Shown: piece by piece, positions 5,519 to 53,602 of the stretch
Layout: every line of letters begins with the position of its first letter
Numbering within the stretch: the first letter of the stretch is position 1
DNA from: a virus
Lineage: Duplodnaviria > Caudoviricetes
Reading direction: 5' to 3' (one strand)
Virus record (IMG/VR): IMGVR_UViG_3300032373_000013
Coordinates: 1-53,778 of that record
DNA length: 53,778 nt
The notes under the pieces: generated by a model
What the model saw: the letters and a program-made list of their open reading frames with translations, nothing else
Told to the model about the DNA's origin: nothing
Database searches by the model: none
Position numbers and translations under genes: made by a program

Positions 5519-7822
5519 ATGGCATTCGAGACGTTCGACGCTGCGGACAACCTCCCCGCAGTTGAAACCAAGCTAGATACGAACGCTGCGAAGTCGCAGG
5601 CGCTCCTAAATGGCGTCGGCATCCCGGAGGACGGGACGACTATCGGGACGCTGGCGGGCACGACTGGCGATCTCGCATCGGGTGACACGGTCAAAGAGGG
5701 GCTCGAGAAGACTCACGCGAAGGCTAATGCGGCAATCGCGGGCGAGAAACTCCGCCACGACTCAGACAGCGCCAACCGCGCAAGCCGCGACCTCGGGCAG
5801 GACGTGGACCTCGACGGGCTCACTGACGGCACCGTGGGCACTACTTTCATGCCAGCGGGCGGAACGAACGTCGCGCAGTACCCGCAGGGGAACACGCTCT
5901 ACGAAGTGGACGTGCGGCGATCGGGTGACGTCACTGGCAGTGCGTTCAACGAAGGCGATCTCCTCACCTACACGCTCACCGCCGAGGTTGGCGGCGAGGC
6001 ATACCGTTGGGTGGCAACCGATCTGTCGGGAGGCGGGCGCTCCGATTGGTCGCAGCTCGCCCCCGTGGAGACGATGACCGGCGCAGACGCGAATCGCACG
6101 CTGATCACGCTCGCGAACGATGCAGACTGGCTCGGGTCGATCGCCTCGGGCCACTACCAGGTCACGTACACAGCAGCGAACGCGAACGGCTCAACGATGC
6201 CAGTGCCGTCGCTCACCGAGGCGCGGACGTGGCAGTTCACAATCTTCTACGCGACATCCACGACTGGTTGGGTGATCGCCACGGCAGCGTTCGACCTCGA
6301 CGGGCTCGGCACGAAGCCGCACCGCTACGCCGCGGCGCTCACTCGCTCCGGCGGTGACTGGGCTGCGCCGACGTGGGTGGGCCTCACTGCGGAGGACGTC
6401 GCGGATCGGACGATTAGGCCGAACCAACTCCTCGGCGGTGACTGGACGCTGACGCAGCCCACAGAGGTCACCGCGTCGTTCCTCGGGCTGCCACGGAAAA
6501 CCGCCATGGGGTATGCGTGCACGACGAGCGCGCTCCTGAATCAGCCGACCGTCGCGGCGGGCACTTATTACTGCGACATCGTCAATGGCGACGACGCGAC
6601 GGGTGACGGATCGGACCCCGACACTCCGTACAAAACGCCCCTTGCCGCGCTCGTGGATAACGCCGACTGCGGGACGCTCTATATCGCGCCTGGGCATTAC
6701 GGCTACCCCGAAGGGATCACGAAGGCCGTGGATGACGAGGACGCGGCGGGCGCTTTCGGCTCCTCGCCCATCAGCGCGTTGAAGGTCCTCGCCTGGCAGA
6801 ACCGTCCGGGTGAGGTAATCCTCTCTACGAGCCACTGGAAGCAAGCGGACTGGGTGAAGACGTCCGGTCGAACGTTCGTCTATGAACGCGAGCCGCAGTT
6901 CGCGGCCGACTCAGGCCAGTTCAACGGCGTTGTGGACCTGAACCATCGGGACGGGAACGGTGGGTTCCTGAAGTACGCCGAGGTGGGCTCTATTGGCGAG
7001 GTTGACGATCAGCCCGGCACGTACTTCTGCGACTACACAGATCCGCCCACGAGCGGTACGGGCATCTGCTATGTGCACACCCCGACCGGCGTAGCTCCCA
7101 CGATCGGGAACGGCGACGAGTACGAGCGCATTCTCGGCCTGCGCGGCACACGTGCGCTCGGTGACTCGACGGGAACGAAGGTCATCGACTGGTTCGTGGA
7201 CGGGATGACACTCATCGGTGGAAGCGGCGGTTTCGACTTCAAAAACACCTCCGGCACGCTGGATGGAGTCATCGTGATCCGCCGCACTCGGGCCGTGAAC
7301 TGCGGGTCAGCAGGCTTCAAGATCGAGGGAGCGTTGCCGTCGCTACTGGAGGACTGCGAGGCGCTGAACAACGACGCGGACGGCTTCCAATACTTCGACG
7401 AAGGCGACGCGGGAACGACAGTGACGGAGCTTCGTTGCCGTGGTCTCTGGAACCGAGGCTCTCAGCTCACTACGGGCAACGGCTCGAGTGCTCACGACGA
7501 TGCGCGTGTACTCCGCATCAACGGTGAGTACGCGCATAATACAGGACCACAGATCGCAGATATCAACGATGCGCAGTCGTGGAACGTTGGCTGCATCGTG
7601 GGCCCGGCCGCAGCGGACGACATCTTGGCGAACAACCACGCCGGGATCTTCGTGAACGACGACGCGGTGATGTCCTGTGTGGACTGCATTGCGCAGGGCA
7701 GCTACCGAGACATTGCGGTCGTGGACGCGAACGCACGCATCTACGTCGATGCCTCGACGATCTACACGACTTGGTACGACGACGGCGACGCCGATCGGAT
7801 CCAGGCGTACGTGCAGACCTGA
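5519..7822 (+). CDS. Virion fibre/spike with C-terminal right-handed beta-helix (pectin-lyase-like)
   Basis: GDDATGDGS..TPYKT...LYIAPGHY beta-helix cap followed by N/G/D-rich rungs (NNDADGF, NGSSAH). Confidence 0.7.
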   Translation: MAFETFDAADNLPAVETKLDTNAAKSQALLNGVGIPEDGTTIGTLAGTTGDLASGDTVKEGLEKTHAKANAAIAGEKLRHDSDSANRASRDLGQDVDLDGLTDGTVGTTFMPAGGTNVAQYPQGNTLYEVDVRRSGDVTGSAFNEGDLLTYTLTAEVGGEAYRWVATDLSGGGRSDWSQLAPVETMTGADANRTLITLANDADWLGSIASGHYQVTYTAANANGSTMPVPSLTEARTWQFTIFYATSTTGWVIATAAFDLDGLGTKPHRYAAALTRSGGDWAAPTWVGLTAEDVADRTIRPNQLLGGDWTLTQPTEVTASFLGLPRKTAMGYACTTSALLNQPTVAAGTYYCDIVNGDDATGDGSDPDTPYKTPLAALVDNADCGTLYIAPGHYGYPEGITKAVDDEDAAGAFGSSPISALKVLAWQNRPGEVILSTSHWKQADWVKTSGRTFVYEREPQFAADSGQFNGVVDLNHRDGNGGFLKYAEVGSIGEVDDQPGTYFCDYTDPPTSGTGICYVHTPTGVAPTIGNGDEYERILGLRGTRALGDSTGTKVIDWFVDGMTLIGGSGGFDFKNTSGTLDGVIVIRRTRAVNCGSAGFKIEGALPSLLEDCEALNNDADGFQYFDEGDAGTTVTELRCRGLWNRGSQLTTGNGSSAHDDARVLRINGEYAHNTGPQIADINDAQSWNVGCIVGPAAADDILANNHAGIFVNDDAVMSCVDCIAQGSYRDIAVVDANARIYVDASTIYTTWYDDGDADRIQAYVQT

Positions 7823-38608: not shown

Positions 38609-38684
38609 TGGCGTAGACGGAGGGACTCGAACCCCCAACCGCTCCGTTAACAGCGGAGCGCTCTGCCAGTTGAGCTACGTCTAC
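38609..38684 (-). tRNA. trnN: tRNA-Asn(GTT)
   Basis: 76 nt: acceptor GTAGACG/CGTCTAC, D arm GCTC/GAGC, anticodon arm CTCCG-CTGTTAA-CGGAG, TTCGAGT loop, G73, encoded CCA. Confidence 0.96.
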
Positions 38685-44348: not shown

Positions 44349-44594
44349 ATGAATGAACTTGACGACATGAAGCGCGTCTTCGACGCCCACCGGGCGGAGT
44401 GGATCGAGCAAGGCCGAACGGGCCAGTGGGCGCTGATCGGACCGGACGGCCCGGTTGACTTCTTCGTTGAGTACGTCGAGATCGTCAAAGCTGCCGCTCG
44501 ACTGTTTGGCAATGGCCCCTGCCTGATCCAGCAAGTGCTCCCTGAGGATCCCATCGAGATCATTCAGCGCGTGGACTTCAGCGCGTTCGCGTGA
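44349..44594 (+). CDS. DUF5678-like small protein
   Basis: Likely ATG 44349; F..HR.EW....GQWALI....V.FF..Y.E....A...FG..P.LI.QV pattern. Confidence 0.7.
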   Translation: MNELDDMKRVFDAHRAEWIEQGRTGQWALIGPDGPVDFFVEYVEIVKAAARLFGNGPCLIQQVLPEDPIEIIQRVDFSAFA

Positions 44595-45112
44595 CCGGAA
44601 ACCCTCAGCAGCGCCGATTGGGTGGAAAGAGGGGCGGCAAGGGTAAGAAGCCCCCCAAGGTGCCCGACGCTCTCAGGATCGGCGGAAAGATCGAGAATGA
44701 CGCGTGCTCGATCAAGCTCCACATCTTCAACCCGCTCGAGGCTGGGGGCGTGAAGGGCCAGCAGCCGCCTCGACTCTTCAAGGTCAAGGCCATCATCGAC
44801 ACGGGGGCGACCTCGACGACGATCAGCGCTCGTTTGGCTCAAAAGATCGGCATCACCGGACACACCCGTATCCGTGTGGGGACTGCCGCTGGCGAGGTCG
44901 ATGGTTGGCAGGCACCGGTCGGTATCGCGTTCCTCGACCTCGAGACAGGGCGGACCGTCTCGCGCGTGCAGCCGATGGCGATCATGCCGATGCACGACGA
45001 CGTCCTATTCGGCATGTCGGACATCGCGCAGGGACGGCTCGTGGTGAACGGTGAGGCTGGCGAATGGAAGTGGATCTTGCCCGGCGGCAGTGTCGGCAAC
45101 CCGAAACCGTAG
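44591..45112 (+). CDS. Retropepsin-like (clan AA) aspartyl protease
   Basis: AIIDTGATSTTIS catalytic motif, TAAG flap, DVLFGMSDI; GTGA-coupled to the upstream gene. Confidence 0.88.
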   Translation: MTGNPQQRRLGGKRGGKGKKPPKVPDALRIGGKIENDACSIKLHIFNPLEAGGVKGQQPPRLFKVKAIIDTGATSTTISARLAQKIGITGHTRIRVGTAAGEVDGWQAPVGIAFLDLETGRTVSRVQPMAIMPMHDDVLFGMSDIAQGRLVVNGEAGEWKWILPGGSVGNPKP

Positions 45113-45331
45113 TCACGAGAAGCGGCCGACGATGAGCGGCCCCCAGCGCGCGATGCGCCGAGGGCCTGGGCGTTCGGGAAGAACGGCGAGCGGCGGTTGA
45201 CGCCACCGCACGCAGCGCCCAGATGAGAGGCGCCCCCGCTTGAAGTCTGCCGAACCACGCCAGTGAACGTCACGGTTTCGACGTAAGCGTGTAGCGTGAG
45301 GCGGCACCCAAACTCTCACGAAGCGCCTGCC

Positions 45332-45838
45332 ATGGTTCGACCCCTTGCTATCGCGTGCCTCCTTCTGGCGGCGTGCACTACGACTGGTTCCGTTCTCGAG
45401 ATCGGCCGCGATACCTTCACGGTGTCGGGTCGAAGTGAGTGGGGTTCAGGCAAGGCGCGAAGCGCGGCGATCAACGCCGCCAACCGATACGCCGCGGAGC
45501 GGGGGATGCGTATGAAGGTCGTGACGATGCAGCCCGGGTGGGACCGTGACGCTCTCGGGGATCGGTGGTACACGATGGATCTAACCTTTCGTGTGATCCC
45601 GCAGGATGACCCCGAGTATCAAACGCGTCCAAACCTCATCCCGAGCCAGCGGACGGTGATTACGCACGAGAACGCGCCTCCTGCGGCGCCGCCACAGGCT
45701 GCTCAATCGACCCCGAAGCCTGGAGGGGATGTTGACGCCTACCTCCGGGGACTACTGGAGCGCGGTGAGATCACTCCAGAGCAGTACGGGCGCCTCGTTG
45801 CCGAGCGCCTCGGTGTGACGGGCGACGACGGCGAATAG
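45332..45838 (+). CDS. Lipoprotein with C-terminal SHOCT-like motif
   Basis: MVRPLAIACLLLAA|C lipobox; IGRDTFTVS; LLERGEITPEQY. Confidence 0.75.
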   Translation: MVRPLAIACLLLAACTTTGSVLEIGRDTFTVSGRSEWGSGKARSAAINAANRYAAERGMRMKVVTMQPGWDRDALGDRWYTMDLTFRVIPQDDPEYQTRPNLIPSQRTVITHENAPPAAPPQAAQSTPKPGGDVDAYLRGLLERGEITPEQYGRLVAERLGVTGDDGE

Positions 45839-46054
45839 GCGTCCGCGAGGTTTCCTCCGAAAACCGTGACGGGTCGTCGCAGGCCATACGTTCGGCTCGG
45901 TGCCCCCGGGTAGACGGGCCGCGGCGCTCCCGTGGAGAGACGACGCCGCGGCCCTAGTGGCATTCCTAGGAATGGCGACGAACGTGTGAGACCGCCGCCG
46001 CAAGCGTCCAATGAAAGGCGCCTCCGCGCCAATTGTTCCACTTGTGCTCATACC

Positions 46055-46079
46055 TGGAAAGATAAGCACGGAGTATCTA
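46055..46079. promoter_or_regulatory. Repeated quasi-palindromic site, copy A: TGGAAAGATAAGCACG-gag-TATCTA
   Basis: 22/25 identical to 52250-52274; AGATA...TATCT arms; about 40 bp upstream of ORF 46117. Confidence 0.7.
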
Positions 46080-46116
46080 CTCCCCAGGAGCGCAAACAGT
46101 CGGTATCACCAGGCTT

Positions 46117-46812
46117 GTGATGGATCACGAATGCAACATGCCACTGTCGGGTCTGTTCACAGAGGATCGCCAGCTACTTAGGCTGGCTGCCGGAGACCCG
46201 GTGCGGGCCCTTGCGTACATCGACTCGGTGCGGTGGGTAGAGGGCGCTGATTGCCCCTCGTGCGGCAGCGAGGACACCTACGCCATTACCGGCCGGAGTG
46301 GGACGGCGCGCAAGACGGTGGCATGTCGAACCTGTCGACACCAGTTTGGATGGCGAATTGCGACCCCATTCGCCGGAACGCGCGTTCAGCCGGAGCACGT
46401 CCTATACGCCGTTGCGGGTCTCCTCGATGGGGACCGACCCGAAGTTGTCGCGGTAGACGTAGAGCGCGAGTTTGGCTGTGGGGTGCGTATGGCGCGACTG
46501 GTCCTGAATCGTGTCCTCATGCTCCGCGCAAGCCTCAATGGCCTTGGAGCGGACGACGAAATCGACCAGAAGGAAGTCGTACGGTGGCTGCCGGTGGCTG
46601 CGATTGCAGCAACTGCGACCATCCTCGTTTGCACTGCGTTCTTCGCGCCGAGCGCCCGCGCCGTAAACGAGCTTAATACGCACTGGACTTTCAACGGCGA
46701 CACCATGTCCCATCGAACCATCGCGTTCGTAGAGGAGTCATACTGGGACCTCACGCGCCGCCACGCTCGCGAGGTGGCGCAGATCAAGGGCCACCTCAAC
46801 AGCAGAGATTAG
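46117..46812 (+). CDS. IS1595-transposase-like Zn-ribbon/HTH fused to a TM helix and an unrecognised C-terminal domain (no DDE domain)
   Basis: ALAYIDSVRW..G..CPSCG...CRTCRHQF...TPFAGTR...VEREFG....ARLVLNRV, then WLPVAAIAATATILVCTAFFA. Confidence 0.78.
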   Translation: MMDHECNMPLSGLFTEDRQLLRLAAGDPVRALAYIDSVRWVEGADCPSCGSEDTYAITGRSGTARKTVACRTCRHQFGWRIATPFAGTRVQPEHVLYAVAGLLDGDRPEVVAVDVEREFGCGVRMARLVLNRVLMLRASLNGLGADDEIDQKEVVRWLPVAAIAATATILVCTAFFAPSARAVNELNTHWTFNGDTMSHRTIAFVEESYWDLTRRHAREVAQIKGHLNSRD

Positions 46813-46814
46813 TC

Positions 46815-47099
46815 ATGTCTGGAGTCCTCTCCACGCAATTCGACTGCAACGGAACACGTACCACATGGGCAACCGCTCGGGGGAAGAACCCCCTAGAGCC
46901 CATTCTTGACTTTGCCGACCGTCACAGCGACGAAGTGAAGGACGCCAAGCTCGATTGCAGCAGCAACGTCATCGCGCTCCCGTCGATCACCTCAACGTGG
47001 GAGAGCGACATCGGCACGACGACGTATGGCTCGGATGACGGTCAAGCACAGCACGATTTGGACGTCATCGAGATCCAGAAGGAAATTCCCCCTGCGTAG
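46815..47099 (+). CDS. Small acidic protein paralogous to the C-terminal domain of ORF 46117
   Basis: Starts 2 bp after the upstream stop; shares LxT..NG....T...E...D...RH..EV...K. Confidence 0.7.
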   Translation: MSGVLSTQFDCNGTRTTWATARGKNPLEPILDFADRHSDEVKDAKLDCSSNVIALPSITSTWESDIGTTTYGSDDGQAQHDLDVIEIQKEIPPA

Positions 47100-47325
47100 C
47101 TAACTCAGTGACGGGTAGGTGTTTGAGCCTCGCGCGATCCCCCGTTGATCAAGGATTTGCGCTACGGCGGGTAGCGTGCCCGTGCGCCGCTTTCTACGTT
47201 GCGGATGTCGAGACCTACTCGGAGTGAGATCCGACTCGGCGTCCAATGAAAACCGCTCTGCCCAAAGCGGCAGCCCCGTATCGCACGGGTTCTCCGCACT
47301 CCGACCGTCGTCGGCCCACGCTCGC

Positions 47326-47586
47326 ATGAGTGGGGTCGACGGCAACTCGTCTGCGCCCGAGGCGGCGACGATCGACGCGAAAGAGATCGCGTCCATCATC
47401 GGTATGACCGTGGCGACCGTCCGCGAGTGGCGGAAGCGCACGTGGATTCGAGAGCCGATCGACCGTCCGGCGAAGGGGTTCGCGTGGTGGCGCGTCGAAA
47501 TCTACGAGGACCTTGGCCGCCGTGGGTATGGACCGTGGGCGCACAAGTACGCGCCTAGTTCATCTGACCAGCGGGGGACGTCATGA
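47326..47586 (+). CDS. Excisionase/AlpA-like HTH protein
   Basis: IDAKEIASIIGMTVATVREWRKR...P; ATGA overlap with the integrase. Confidence 0.7.
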   Translation: MSGVDGNSSAPEAATIDAKEIASIIGMTVATVREWRKRTWIREPIDRPAKGFAWWRVEIYEDLGRRGYGPWAHKYAPSSSDQRGTS

Positions 47587-48935
47587 CTCCTCCGCGCGGG
47601 CTCGATCAGGGCATCCTGAAGAAGGTCAACGGGGTATGGATCTTCACATACACCGCCATCGACAAGGCTGGAAAGCGTTCGCGCGGCTCTCACACCCTCG
47701 GGCCGTCTAAGCGCATCGCTGAGGCCGAAGCCAGGAAGCTGATCGATAAGCGCAACGAGCGCCTGTACGGAGTCGGTCCCGACGAGCGGCCTAACGAACC
47801 GTGGCGCCCGTGGCTTGAGCGTTGGCGCACTTCCTATGCCAAGGAGCGCGGCGATCTCAATGCACGCAGGTCCGCGGCACGCCTGGAGCGTGTGCTCGAT
47901 GGAGTCGACGCCGTCAGCTTCGGCGACATAACGATCGGAGCGGTGACGCTCTACCTGGACGAGCTGAGCGATCGTTTCAGCGCCTCCACCGTGAACGACT
48001 ACATCGCGAGTCTCCGCGTGTTCCTCTCATGGTGCGTGCAGCGCGAGGTCATCCCCGAGGAGAACGCAATCCGGCCGAAGTACCTCAGCGTGAGCGGTGC
48101 TCTCGAGCGTCCTGAGTTCACAGAAGAGCAGGTTGCAGCGATCTTCGCCGCTGGACGGGCGCGAGACGCTGCGGCTCGGCGGAACTGGGGCGCGTTTGGC
48201 TCCGGCAGTCATGGCCGACTGAAGTACGCGCAGCCGTTCCCACGGATGCACACGATCGAGTTCCTAACGCTGACCATCAGTCGGCCGGGGGCCGCGCGGC
48301 AGGTGCGAAACTGCGATGTCTACCGTGAGCCGGAGAAGCGCTTCGTGCACTTCCGCGCGGCGACGATGAAGGCGAAGAACGACGTCTACGTGCCGATTGA
48401 GGGAGCGCTCGAAGAGCTGATCGATCGCATCGACGCGACCCACCTTGAGATCACTGGGCGCGTAGGGCGCCCGGAGGAGACTCTGCTCCGCTCACCGGCG
48501 GGTCTCCCGTGGACGAAGAACTCCCATCCGCTCGTGAAGTGGTTCCAGTCCGCGATGAAGGACGCGGGGATCGAGAAGGAGGTCCCGGGGTTCAAGGATC
48601 GCGACGTGTACTGCCTTCGCGGCTTTGGCGTGACGCGGATGTTGCGTGCCACACGCGATCCCGTGCTCGTGGCGAAGATCGGCGGCTGGACGGACCCGAA
48701 GGTCATGCTGAGGCACTACGAGAAGCTGAACCTCGGTGACACACGCGAAGCCATCGGCGCGATGCAGTTGCCGACGGGAATCACGGAACAAATCGCTGGC
48801 GAGGCTCCGGACGCCGGGTCGGGAGGCGCACGCGCACCCCCTAAGTTCTGCCGACGTCTCGGCTTGCGACGGCGGTTGCACTCACGGCGCAGCATGACAA
48901 GTGCCGAGAGAATATCTCCTTCGCCTCCCCATTGA
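47583..48935 (+). CDS. int: Tyrosine recombinase (integrase)
   Basis: SASTVNDYIASLRVFLSW core-binding region; catalytic R (SRPG), K (MKAK), YCLR, GGW...RHY. Confidence 0.9.
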   Translation: MTPPRGLDQGILKKVNGVWIFTYTAIDKAGKRSRGSHTLGPSKRIAEAEARKLIDKRNERLYGVGPDERPNEPWRPWLERWRTSYAKERGDLNARRSAARLERVLDGVDAVSFGDITIGAVTLYLDELSDRFSASTVNDYIASLRVFLSWCVQREVIPEENAIRPKYLSVSGALERPEFTEEQVAAIFAAGRARDAAARRNWGAFGSGSHGRLKYAQPFPRMHTIEFLTLTISRPGAARQVRNCDVYREPEKRFVHFRAATMKAKNDVYVPIEGALEELIDRIDATHLEITGRVGRPEETLLRSPAGLPWTKNSHPLVKWFQSAMKDAGIEKEVPGFKDRDVYCLRGFGVTRMLRATRDPVLVAKIGGWTDPKVMLRHYEKLNLGDTREAIGAMQLPTGITEQIAGEAPDAGSGGARAPPKFCRRLGLRRRLHSRRSMTSAERISPSPPH

Positions 48936-52561: not shown

Positions 52562-53602
52562 GTGAGCACCTGCTCCTGCGCCTCCAAGGGCCGCCCAGAG
52601 TGGTTCCCGTTCCACGCGGCGGACTTCCTGAATTCAGACACCTGCGCCGATGTGAACGGCGTGGAGCGCGCCCTCTACGCGCTGATGCTCGTCCTGGCCT
52701 GGAATGGCCCCGGGCTCCCCGCGGACCGCAGACGCCTCGCGAACCGCCTCGGTGTGGACCGCGAGCAGGTGGACGACCTCCTCGATGGCCCAGTCGGCGA
52801 GAACTGGTTCGAGTGCTGTGGAAAGCTCTGGAACGAGCGCATGGAGGAGCAGCGGGTGAAGGCTGAAGCGCGCTCCAAAGCGGGGGCGAAAGGGGGCAAA
52901 GCGAGCGCCGAAAAGCGCCGTCAGAAGGCTTCCAGGAAAGCCTCGGATCCAACGACCGTTCAACGACCGTTTAGAACGACCGTTGAACGACCGTTGAACG
53001 ATCGTTTAGAACGACCGTTGAACGACCGTTCAACGACCGTTGAACGACCGTTCGAACAGATAAGAGGAGAGGAGATAAGAGAAGAGACACTCCCTAGCGG
53101 GAGTGTAGGCGCGCACGCGCCCGCGGAAGGCCAATCCAAGCTCGGGAAGGCACTGGGGGAGGCGCTGGAGCCGATACCGCCCGAGGCCGAGGATGCGCTA
53201 CGGCTCTGGGCCGAGCACCTGACCGAGCGTGTCGGGGCGTCGAGGGGCGTCGCGTACTGGCGTGGCGAACTCAAATCCGCAGGACGCGACCCAGCGGTGT
53301 ACGCCCAGCGTGTGGCGTTCTCGATCTCGAAGGACGCGAAGTCCGTGCTGGCGCCGAAGTCGGACGAGCTAGCGGCGTTCCTCGGCGAGCAGGATTCCAC
53401 GGCACTCGCGGCGCCGGGCACAGGCGGCGTCGAAGCCAAGCATCTCCCGTTCAACGCGAAGTCGGACATCTGGGAGGCCAAGCAACGCGAGGATCGCCGA
53501 CGTCGCCTAGCGGCAATCGACGCCGCCGAAGCCGCTGCGGCCGAGCCGCGCCTCGTCAACGTCGAGCCTCCCCGTCCACGTCTCGCCGGGGGTGACCGCT
53601 GA
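52562..53602 (+). CDS. Replication initiator, DUF1376/YdaU-type N-terminus (lambda O analogue)
   Basis: PEWFPFHAADFL...ERALY..ML..AW...LP....LA...KLWNERM; AGGAG RBS; internal iterons. Confidence 0.85.
   Translation: MSTCSCASKGRPEWFPFHAADFLNSDTCADVNGVERALYALMLVLAWNGPGLPADRRRLANRLGVDREQVDDLLDGPVGENWFECCGKLWNERMEEQRVKAEARSKAGAKGGKASAEKRRQKASRKASDPTTVQRPFRTTVERPLNDRLERPLNDRSTTVERPFEQIRGEEIREETLPSGSVGAHAPAEGQSKLGKALGEALEPIPPEAEDALRLWAEHLTERVGASRGVAYWRGELKSAGRDPAVYAQRVAFSISKDAKSVLAPKSDELAAFLGEQDSTALAAPGTGGVEAKHLPFNAKSDIWEAKQREDRRRRLAAIDAAEAAAAEPRLVNVEPPRPRLAGGDR
52951..53052. repeat. Nine iterons AACGA(C/T)CGTT; probable replication origin
   Basis: Copies at 52951, 52962, 52975, 52986, 52997, 53010, 53021, 53032 and 53043, followed by a purine-rich tract. 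Confidence 0.85.

Follow-up and report, generated by a model that had tools for sequence, protein, structure and literature searches.

We describe a pair of adjacent genes, here called ORF A and ORF B (ORF, open reading frame), in the IMG/VR record IMGVR_UViG_3300032373_000013, a phage of Planctomycetota. The stretch of DNA analysed, hereafter the window, is the whole of this linear virus record (53,778 bases; CheckV completeness 53). ORF A (46117-46812, plus strand) encodes a putative membrane-tethered regulator that ends in a small tail domain, and ORF B (46815-47099, plus strand), whose ATG lies 2 nucleotides past the TAG of A, encodes a leaderless protein of 94 residues. Profile comparison confirmed that the A tail and B share one domain of about 45 residues, because a profile built without A or B finds only these two among the 1047 ORFs of the window. 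Judging from gene order in other genomes, the two genes are a conserved pair, coupled in translation, whose neighbours in phages and prophages of Planctomycetota are genes for an excisionase and an integrase. The finding is wider than the original prediction, made from the letters of the window, had seen: a pairing of a membrane protein with a free twin of its domain, present in Planctomycetota and their phages.

A domain shared by the A tail and B

ORF A can be read as 231 residues from the GTG at 46117 or as 230 from the ATG at 46120; we number residues by the longer reading, in which the tail begins at residue 185. The protein consists of a cytoplasmic zinc-ribbon and helical domain of DNA-binding type, one membrane helix, and the C-terminal tail domain. 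The zinc ribbon, with its CxxC...CxxC pattern, matches Zn_ribbon_IS1595 (PF12760) at residues 31-76 (46207-46344, plus strand), with 38.1 bits against a cut-off of 25.4 (E 1.5e-9), and a match to phrog_25593 spans residues 35-154. Among 26 relatives, C46, C49, and C70 are invariant and C73 is kept in at least 90%. The membrane helix covers residues 151-176 (46567-46644, plus strand; top hydrophobic 19-mer with a Kyte-Doolittle value of 2.12), and relatives of A carry Arg/Lys-rich stretches on its N-terminal side. The tail domain (residues 185-226; 46669-46794, plus strand) is expected to face the periplasm because of the single membrane helix, the cytoplasmic zinc site, and the basic residues on the N-terminal side. 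The N-terminus of A may bind DNA, since it resembles the N-termini of transposases. A itself was ruled out as a transposase of the IS1595 family: its Pfam matches at E <= 0.1 include no DDE family, so it would not be a transposase, and a membrane helix and tail follow residue 150.

ORF B encodes an acidic protein (isoelectric point 4.3) with no hydrophobic stretch (top hydrophobic 19-mer 0.47), and it is the sole member of its 90% cluster. Its first domain copy lies at residues 4-48 (46824-46958, plus strand), with a hairpin (4-11/14-21), a helix (30-50), and two cysteines, Cys11 and Cys48. Both genes show the coding-type pattern GC1>GC2<GC3 of G+C content at the three codon positions, as do the certain genes of the window (A 0.67/0.49/0.71; B 0.55/0.46/0.73; terminase 0.67/0.45/0.75).

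The original prediction had aligned about 40 residues of the A tail with B, and Smith-Waterman alignment returned that very alignment (41 columns, 12 identities, one 2-residue gap, BLOSUM62 score 30). The score of 30 was reached by 245 of 5000 shuffles of B (z=2.0), or by 119 of 5000 when the N-terminal half only was used, and BLASTP of A against B reported nothing at E <= 100. On its own, the pairwise alignment is therefore not above chance, and the significance of the likeness comes from profiles instead. An exhaustive HMMER search with A retrieved 299 proteins at E <= 1e-3, most of which match only its N-terminal 130 residues. Tails were counted in the 149 relatives of A that were listed, and the tail domain closes 29 of the 149, each time after a strongly hydrophobic stretch. 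The consensus of these tails, of about 45 residues, is about pL.s.W.hgG......T.R.pGES...W..RH...V......fPPD, and three residues (W190, E207, and R215 in the numbering of A) do not vary across 26 aligned sequences.

The test profile was made from the tails of 24 relatives, with A and B excluded; the tail P0047 was missed by the motif filter, and four members were unrecognised at that point. This profile scored the A tail at 31 bits and residues 4-46 of B at 19-21 bits (E 4.5e-8 for one sequence). Against the 1047 six-frame ORFs of at least 30 residues in the window, it gave A an E-value of 1.6e-7 and B one of 1.8e-5, and the next ORF had 0.29. None of 20000 shuffles reached the profile score of B (20-22 bits), the shuffle maximum being 11.4 bits. 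The motif of the domain is about L-x-x-x-W-x-x-x-G-x6-T-x-R-x-x-G-E-S-x3-W-x-x-R-H-x3-V, and its E and R are invariant in 23 aligned rows, B included.

The C-terminal half of B had been proposed as a weaker second copy of the domain (ITSTWES...QHDLDVIEIQK), a claim that survives in part. A refined profile, made from 45 copies that all lie outside the window, places TSTW..G at model positions 3-11 and AQH..V......PP at positions 30-45, collinear. Both ends are thus kept at residues 59-93 (46989-47093, plus strand) and the middle is shortened, with about 9 residues absent between the two matching parts. The total of 6.4 bits was reached by 13 of 20000 shuffles. Pairwise comparison of this half as a second copy, and of the two halves of B with each other, did no better than shuffles, and AlphaFold gives residues 59-93 a predicted local distance difference test (pLDDT) value of 48-60, which is not a confident fold. 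Relatives of 92-100 residues carry two clear copies. The C-terminal half of B may be a decayed second copy.

The fold predictions agree with the profile result. AlphaFold modelled A, from its family alignment, with a mean pLDDT of 87.4, as N-terminal helices, the zinc ribbon, three helices (92-140), a long helix (151-176) coinciding with the hydrophobic stretch, and the hairpin and helix of the tail. Within the tail model, strands at 185-192 and 195-202 are followed by a helix at 209-226 (pLDDT 85-97). The model of B, from 8 sequences, has strands at 4-11 and 14-21 and a helix at 30-50 (pLDDT 76-91), with nothing confident past residue 50. The A tail and the N-terminal half of B are therefore predicted to have the same hairpin-plus-helix topology, a comparison made only by the order of secondary-structure elements. 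Together with its recurrence at the end of A relatives, this bears out the suggestion that the tail is a real domain. Foldseek against the PDB gave no match at E <= 0.001 for the B model, Foldseek gave none at E <= 0.001 for the A model, and the best hit of the B model in a wide VIA-align search (Z 5.2) was under the stated noise level of that tool. These nulls show neither a new nor a known fold.

At the level of sequence families, the domain appears to be new: no family of Pfam or NCBIfam covers it, and a search of the PDB sequence set with the domain profile had a best E-value of 0.16. Word-based protein searches with A and B matched only A and B themselves. Likewise, no relative was returned by a viral contig search with A or by a genome contig search with the A relative P0010, blastn of 45200-47700 against phage records gave no match, and the ESM Atlas gave no usable match for B or for residues 150-231 of A. 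A narrow literature search found no paper describing the domain or the A-B pair.

Recurrence of the pair and spread of the domain

Two of the A relatives carry names, both of them 'MAG: transposase [Planctomycetota bacterium]', and one was found in the genome G001. Searching G001 with the A-family alignment alone identified three full A-like genes, two of which are directly followed by small ORFs that match the tail positions alone; the third B-like ORF was found with the tail profile. The three B-like ORFs encode 56, 45, and 95 residues, the last with two domain copies. Their starts overlap the stops of the A-like genes (ATGA twice, 17 nucleotides once). All three pairs are followed by a helix-turn-helix (HTH)/excisionase-like gene and a Phage_integrase gene, which is the order of the window. 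G001 thus carries three paralogous modules of this kind (contigs C43, C5, and C6), which suggests three related integrated elements. Two of its prophage loci, L002 (4477-5781, minus strand) and L067 (7640-8503, plus strand), also encode a related membrane-anchored protein (MxKDKKxDDPREIAMGC...) divergent from the A-like gene, with no Pfam family.

Genome G588 contains a fifth pair. Its A-like gene passes the PF12760 cut-off and has a membrane helix, its tail is recognisable by eye only, and a relative of the window integrase is encoded on the opposite strand at a distance of about 0.9 kb. The neighbourhood comparison called for by the original prediction thus found the pair again in bacterial genomes, three times in G001 and once in G588, with integrase genes. 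B-like proteins beside A-like genes are 36-50% identical to the B of the window, and B is 31% identical to the A tail. All five of the proteins in this position, B included, have C[DN]G in the hairpin and a cysteine at the end of the helix. A quick tree, indicative only (45 columns, no support values), sets the B-like proteins apart from the A tails. Since the B-like proteins are nearer to each other than to their own A tails, the split between tail and free protein would be old.

The domain extends beyond these pairs. The tail/B profile matched 26 of 401 Planctomycetota genomes at E <= 0.01 and, among the matches listed, 9 at E <= 1e-4; 17 of 301 genomes from the order of G001 were matched at E <= 1e-4. 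The whole-A alignment matched 89 of the 401, nearly always in ORFs of 300-350 residues and only at about model positions 20-150. These N-terminal-only matches are ordinary IS1595-type transposases. For proteins of the A type, the label 'transposase' looks like over-annotation, which our finding would correct.

Three settings of the domain were observed: behind the membrane helix in single-pass proteins, as one or two copies in leaderless proteins of 45-116 residues, and in seven ORFs where an N-terminal hydrophobic leader or anchor precedes one or two copies (L038, L044, L045, L046, L047, L084, and L086; leaders judged by eye and by hydropathy). The leaders or anchors of these seven, together with the position after a hydrophobic stretch in the listed A relatives, point to a domain that functions outside the cytoplasm.

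We surveyed the same-strand upstream neighbours of leaderless B-like loci with E <= 1e-4, plus L064 and L065. At 18 of the 19 assessable loci, an ORF with a membrane helix (a hydrophobic 19-mer with a Kyte-Doolittle value of 1.6 or more) ends within about 20 nucleotides of the B-like start or overlaps it. L065 is the exception, and the contig-end loci L039 and L082 stand outside the 19. Eight of the 18 neighbours are ORFs of about 450 residues, and all eight are Ser/Thr protein kinases (PF00069, E 1e-43 to 1e-51) in which 60-90 residues separate the membrane helix from the C-terminus. The tail of the upstream partner contains the domain by profile at four loci (the window and the three of G001) and by eye only in G588, G200, and G166. 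An integrase gene lies within 2 kb at six loci (the window, the three of G001, G588, and G398), a count made outside G463, G560, and G166; the five surrounding ORFs tested at the G200 locus include no integrase. At a single kinase-linked locus (L069, G241:C14, about 6007-7454), the two-copy B-like ORF is directly followed by an oligonucleotide cyclase of the type found in CBASS anti-phage systems (SMODS; PADLOC Cyclase E 5.6e-38), with a ResIII helicase-like gene nearby, which may be coincidence.

The cassette and its genomic setting

The window encodes a large terminase, collagen-like tail fibres, an Erf-like annealing protein, a RecE-like exonuclease, and an HNH endonuclease, as well as a tyrosine integrase and, directly before it, an excisionase-like HTH gene. 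This gene content, including the integrase and the excisionase-like gene, indicates a temperate phage. At the integrase end, the genes follow each other on the plus strand. A retropepsin-like aspartyl protease gene (44591-45112; PF13975/PF13650, E about 1e-11), part of the lysogeny-end gene cluster of the phage, is followed by a lipoprotein-like ORF (45296-45838) just upstream of the A-B cassette, with a hydrophobic leader ending in LLAAC and a weak C-terminal SHOCT match. After A and B come the excisionase/AlpA-like HTH gene (47326-47586), which matches phrog_66 'excisionase and transcriptional regulator' at E 3.5e-4 and has weak HTH Pfam matches, and the tyrosine integrase (47583-48935; phrog_1 integrase, E 2.1e-24). 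The start of the excisionase-like gene is uncertain (ATG 47326, 86 residues, or GTG 47176, 136 residues).

Contigs from four runs of an independent study match 45843-47344 of the window at 99% identity or more. These contigs are of low depth, and the stretch is covered by several of them, none spanning the whole. They diverge from the window before 45843, which is five bases past the stop of the upstream gene, and they have 145 other letters in place of 47345-47480. Within the matching part B is unchanged, and A differs at a single position (46687 A>G, Thr191Ala). The A-B cassette accordingly has the appearance of a shared mobile module, in keeping with phage mosaicism.

The cassette includes non-coding DNA on both sides of the gene pair. 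The upstream part (45843-46116, plus strand) contains the 13-mer GCGTCCAATGAAA at 46004-46016 and a G+C-rich hairpin at 46017-46030, and the stretch after B (47100-47325, plus strand) contains a second GCGTCCAATGAAA at 47239-47251 and a hairpin at 47252-47271. These are the two exact copies of the 13-mer in the window, each directly before a G+C-rich hairpin, and they bracket the pair, one about 100 nucleotides before A and the other between B and the excisionase-like gene. Read on the minus strand, both sites are terminator-like, with the hairpin followed by TTTCATTGGA. The independent contigs have an A>G change at 47250, in one of the copies. The sites could be operators, terminators, or cassette boundaries.

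Two ways of joining A and B into one product were rejected. Read-through of the A TAG into B fails because the frames differ, and the 'tRNA-Pyl(cta)' of the window was unconfirmed by Rfam. A frameshift fusion fails because the frame offsets vary by locus and B-like proteins keep their own ATG and N-terminus. The tRNA in question is an 89-nucleotide ARAGORN prediction ('tRNA-Pyl', anticodon CTA) at 52957-53045 on the minus strand, inside a primosomal-protein-like ORF; it was unmatched by the Rfam tRNA model at the gathering score, which confirmed only a tRNA-Asn at 38612-38684, and it is probably a false call. The stop codons of window ORFs of at least 200 residues are TGA in 39 cases, TAG in 17, and TAA in 4.

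Possible roles of the pair and its likeness to known systems

We tentatively propose, as a possibility rather than a probability, that B is a soluble partner or decoy of the membrane-tethered regulator A. The domain might work as a pair, given its very small size and the occurrence of both one- and two-copy forms. B would then bind the A tail, or compete with it for the same partner, and in this way tune A. A itself would be a membrane-tethered DNA-binding regulator of its own cassette, of the adjacent excision-integration genes, or of both. Overall, the system would amount to a one-component sensor in the membrane, served by a soluble paralogue of its own sensor domain that acts as co-factor or decoy.

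The original prediction had likewise suggested a homotypic receptor/ligand or decoy pair, for which complex prediction and the survey of neighbours point in different directions. The predicted complex of the A tail with B scored 0.45 against 0.23 for the best control and was graded 'weak support', which is the strength that we give to direct binding. Of 157 solved complexes, 116 passed the mark, as did 2 of 215 mismatched pairs, and passes at 0.60 or under comprised 18 of the 157 solved complexes and both passing mismatches; these calibration counts apply only approximately here, as custom alignments served as input. The runs shared at least 51% of contacts, with a partner pLDDT of at least 58. 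On the other side stand the eight kinase partners without a detectable domain.

Several observations weigh against our proposal. B and all B-like proteins are without a signal peptide, so the caveat raised for B at the outset stands for every one of them, and a leaderless B would be in a different compartment from an A tail expected in the periplasm. The tails of the eight kinases and of the G398, G463, and G560 partners have no detectable copy of the domain, and domain-to-domain pairing therefore cannot be the general rule. By the calibration of the prediction tool, a complex prediction that passes so weakly would be more often wrong than right unless the complex was likely beforehand. The DNA binding proposed for A comes from family likeness alone. 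The 28-31 bits that the N-terminal half of B obtains with the refined profile come from a set partly gathered with a B-containing alignment, and only the score of 19-22 bits is independent of B. No counterpart of GCGTCCAATGAAA is evident in the three G001 loci, and the idea of a conserved operator common to them and the window was dropped. Finally, the public runs listed for the cassette include no RNA run.

A somewhat doubtful alternative is that B-like proteins stay in the cytoplasm and there serve single-pass signalling proteins (the kinases and A-like regulators) as partners or substrates of their cytoplasmic or juxtamembrane parts. Translational coupling would have them made next to these proteins, the A tail and B would never meet, and the domain copy in the A tail would serve another purpose. 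The absence of signal peptides, the eight B-like ORFs directly after Pkinase genes whose tails lack the domain, and the start/stop overlaps or gaps under about 20 nucleotides are all consistent with this. B-like proteins are moreover rich in Thr and Ser, as kinase substrates can be, a link that is presumptive. Such a cytoplasmic role is harder to reconcile with the domain lying behind leaders or anchors in seven ORFs and after a membrane helix in 29 of the 149 listed A relatives. The cysteine pair kept in B-like proteins beside A-like genes would also more often be a disulfide than a cytoplasmic feature, and the complex prediction, weak as its support is, points to contact between the A tail and B.

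An unlikely explanation is that A-B is a 'moron' for lysogenic conversion or superinfection exclusion, which would act on incoming DNA or on the envelope and protect the lysogen. A mosaic cassette that brings along flanking non-coding DNA and hairpins of its own, at least 99% alike across phage backgrounds, is what such a gene pair could look like. So are its place at the integrase end beside the lipoprotein-like gene (45296-45838) and its G+C content, which at 0.605 for 46001-47000 is below that of its surroundings. Against it, PADLOC returned no family for A, B, or two B-like proteins at E <= 0.01, and the order A, B, excisionase, integrase at four loci fits excision control at least as well.

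Very improbable, in our estimate, is a role for B as a protein signal. Leaderless B, produced in infected or induced cells, would be freed by lysis, enter the periplasm of neighbouring Planctomycetota cells, and bind the outer domain of A, so that A counts lysis events and sets excision or lysogeny, as a homotypic protein counterpart of arbitrium. One study (PMC5394234) reports uptake of GFP and of dextran of 10-40 kDa into the periplasm in Planctomycetota, as well as genetic tools for Planctopirus limnophila. If the lysis signal were real, hosts would have their own form of it in the kinase-linked cellular pairs. It is scarcely credible that the likeness arose by chance, or that B is a dead remnant of a duplicated A tail: the pairwise alignment is not significant (245 of 5000 shuffles, nothing by BLASTP) and B has no word-search relatives, but B is found by profile at E 1.8e-5 over the window with 0 of 20000 shuffles matching its score, B-like ORFs with their own signature are conserved in other genomes, B has a coding G+C pattern and no change in the independent contigs, and its N-terminal half folds confidently.

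Returning to B as a soluble partner or decoy of A, binding between two domain copies would, if true, represent a novel coupling between a phage regulator tethered to the membrane and a soluble factor. The neighbourhood rule, by which the gene for a single-pass membrane signalling protein has a leaderless protein of one or two copies encoded directly after it (18 of 19 assessable loci), ties phage lysogeny cassettes to cellular Ser/Thr kinases in Planctomycetota. To our knowledge, both signalling and phages have barely been studied in this phylum.

Among known systems, three others share some features with the pair. IS1595 transposases have the PF12760 ribbon in common with residues 31-76 of A, which differs from them in its 231 residues, its membrane helix and tail, and its lack of a DDE domain. 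Zinc-binding membrane anti-sigma factors resemble the predicted layout of A: their N-terminal part binds zinc in the cytoplasm, and a single membrane helix connects it to a C-terminal domain on the outer side. One A relative has a sub-threshold trace of such a factor (NF052375, E 0.025, 14.6 bits against a cut-off of 100), and no sigma-factor gene was seen among the genes beside A. In arbitrium, AimP carries a signal peptide and is processed to a hexapeptide, AimR is a cytoplasmic tetratricopeptide repeat (TPR) protein, and no domain is common to both. The likeness is that a phage encodes, near its lysogeny genes, a regulator and a small protein, a pair through which other infections could be reported; the difference is that B has no hydrophobic leader and A no TPR family match. 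A-B was ruled out as an AimR/AimP pair, there being no secreted peptide leader in B and no TPR in A.

The nearest analogue by architecture is the ToxR-ToxS type. Proteins of the ToxR-ToxS, TcpP-TcpH, and CadC type combine an N-terminus that binds DNA in the cytoplasm with a single membrane helix and a small C-terminal domain in the periplasm, and in ToxRS and TcpPH a small partner encoded directly downstream acts on the periplasmic domain. The analogy with A-B would be one of function and not of membership. The DNA-binding part of the ToxR type is a winged helix of the OmpR type, whereas that of A is an IS1595-type zinc ribbon with helices, and the Pfam matches of A include neither Trans_reg_C nor another winged-helix family. 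A-B also differs from ToxR-ToxS in that B lacks a membrane anchor and signal peptide and is a paralogue of the outer domain of A, and in its setting, a phage cassette beside excisionase and integrase genes.

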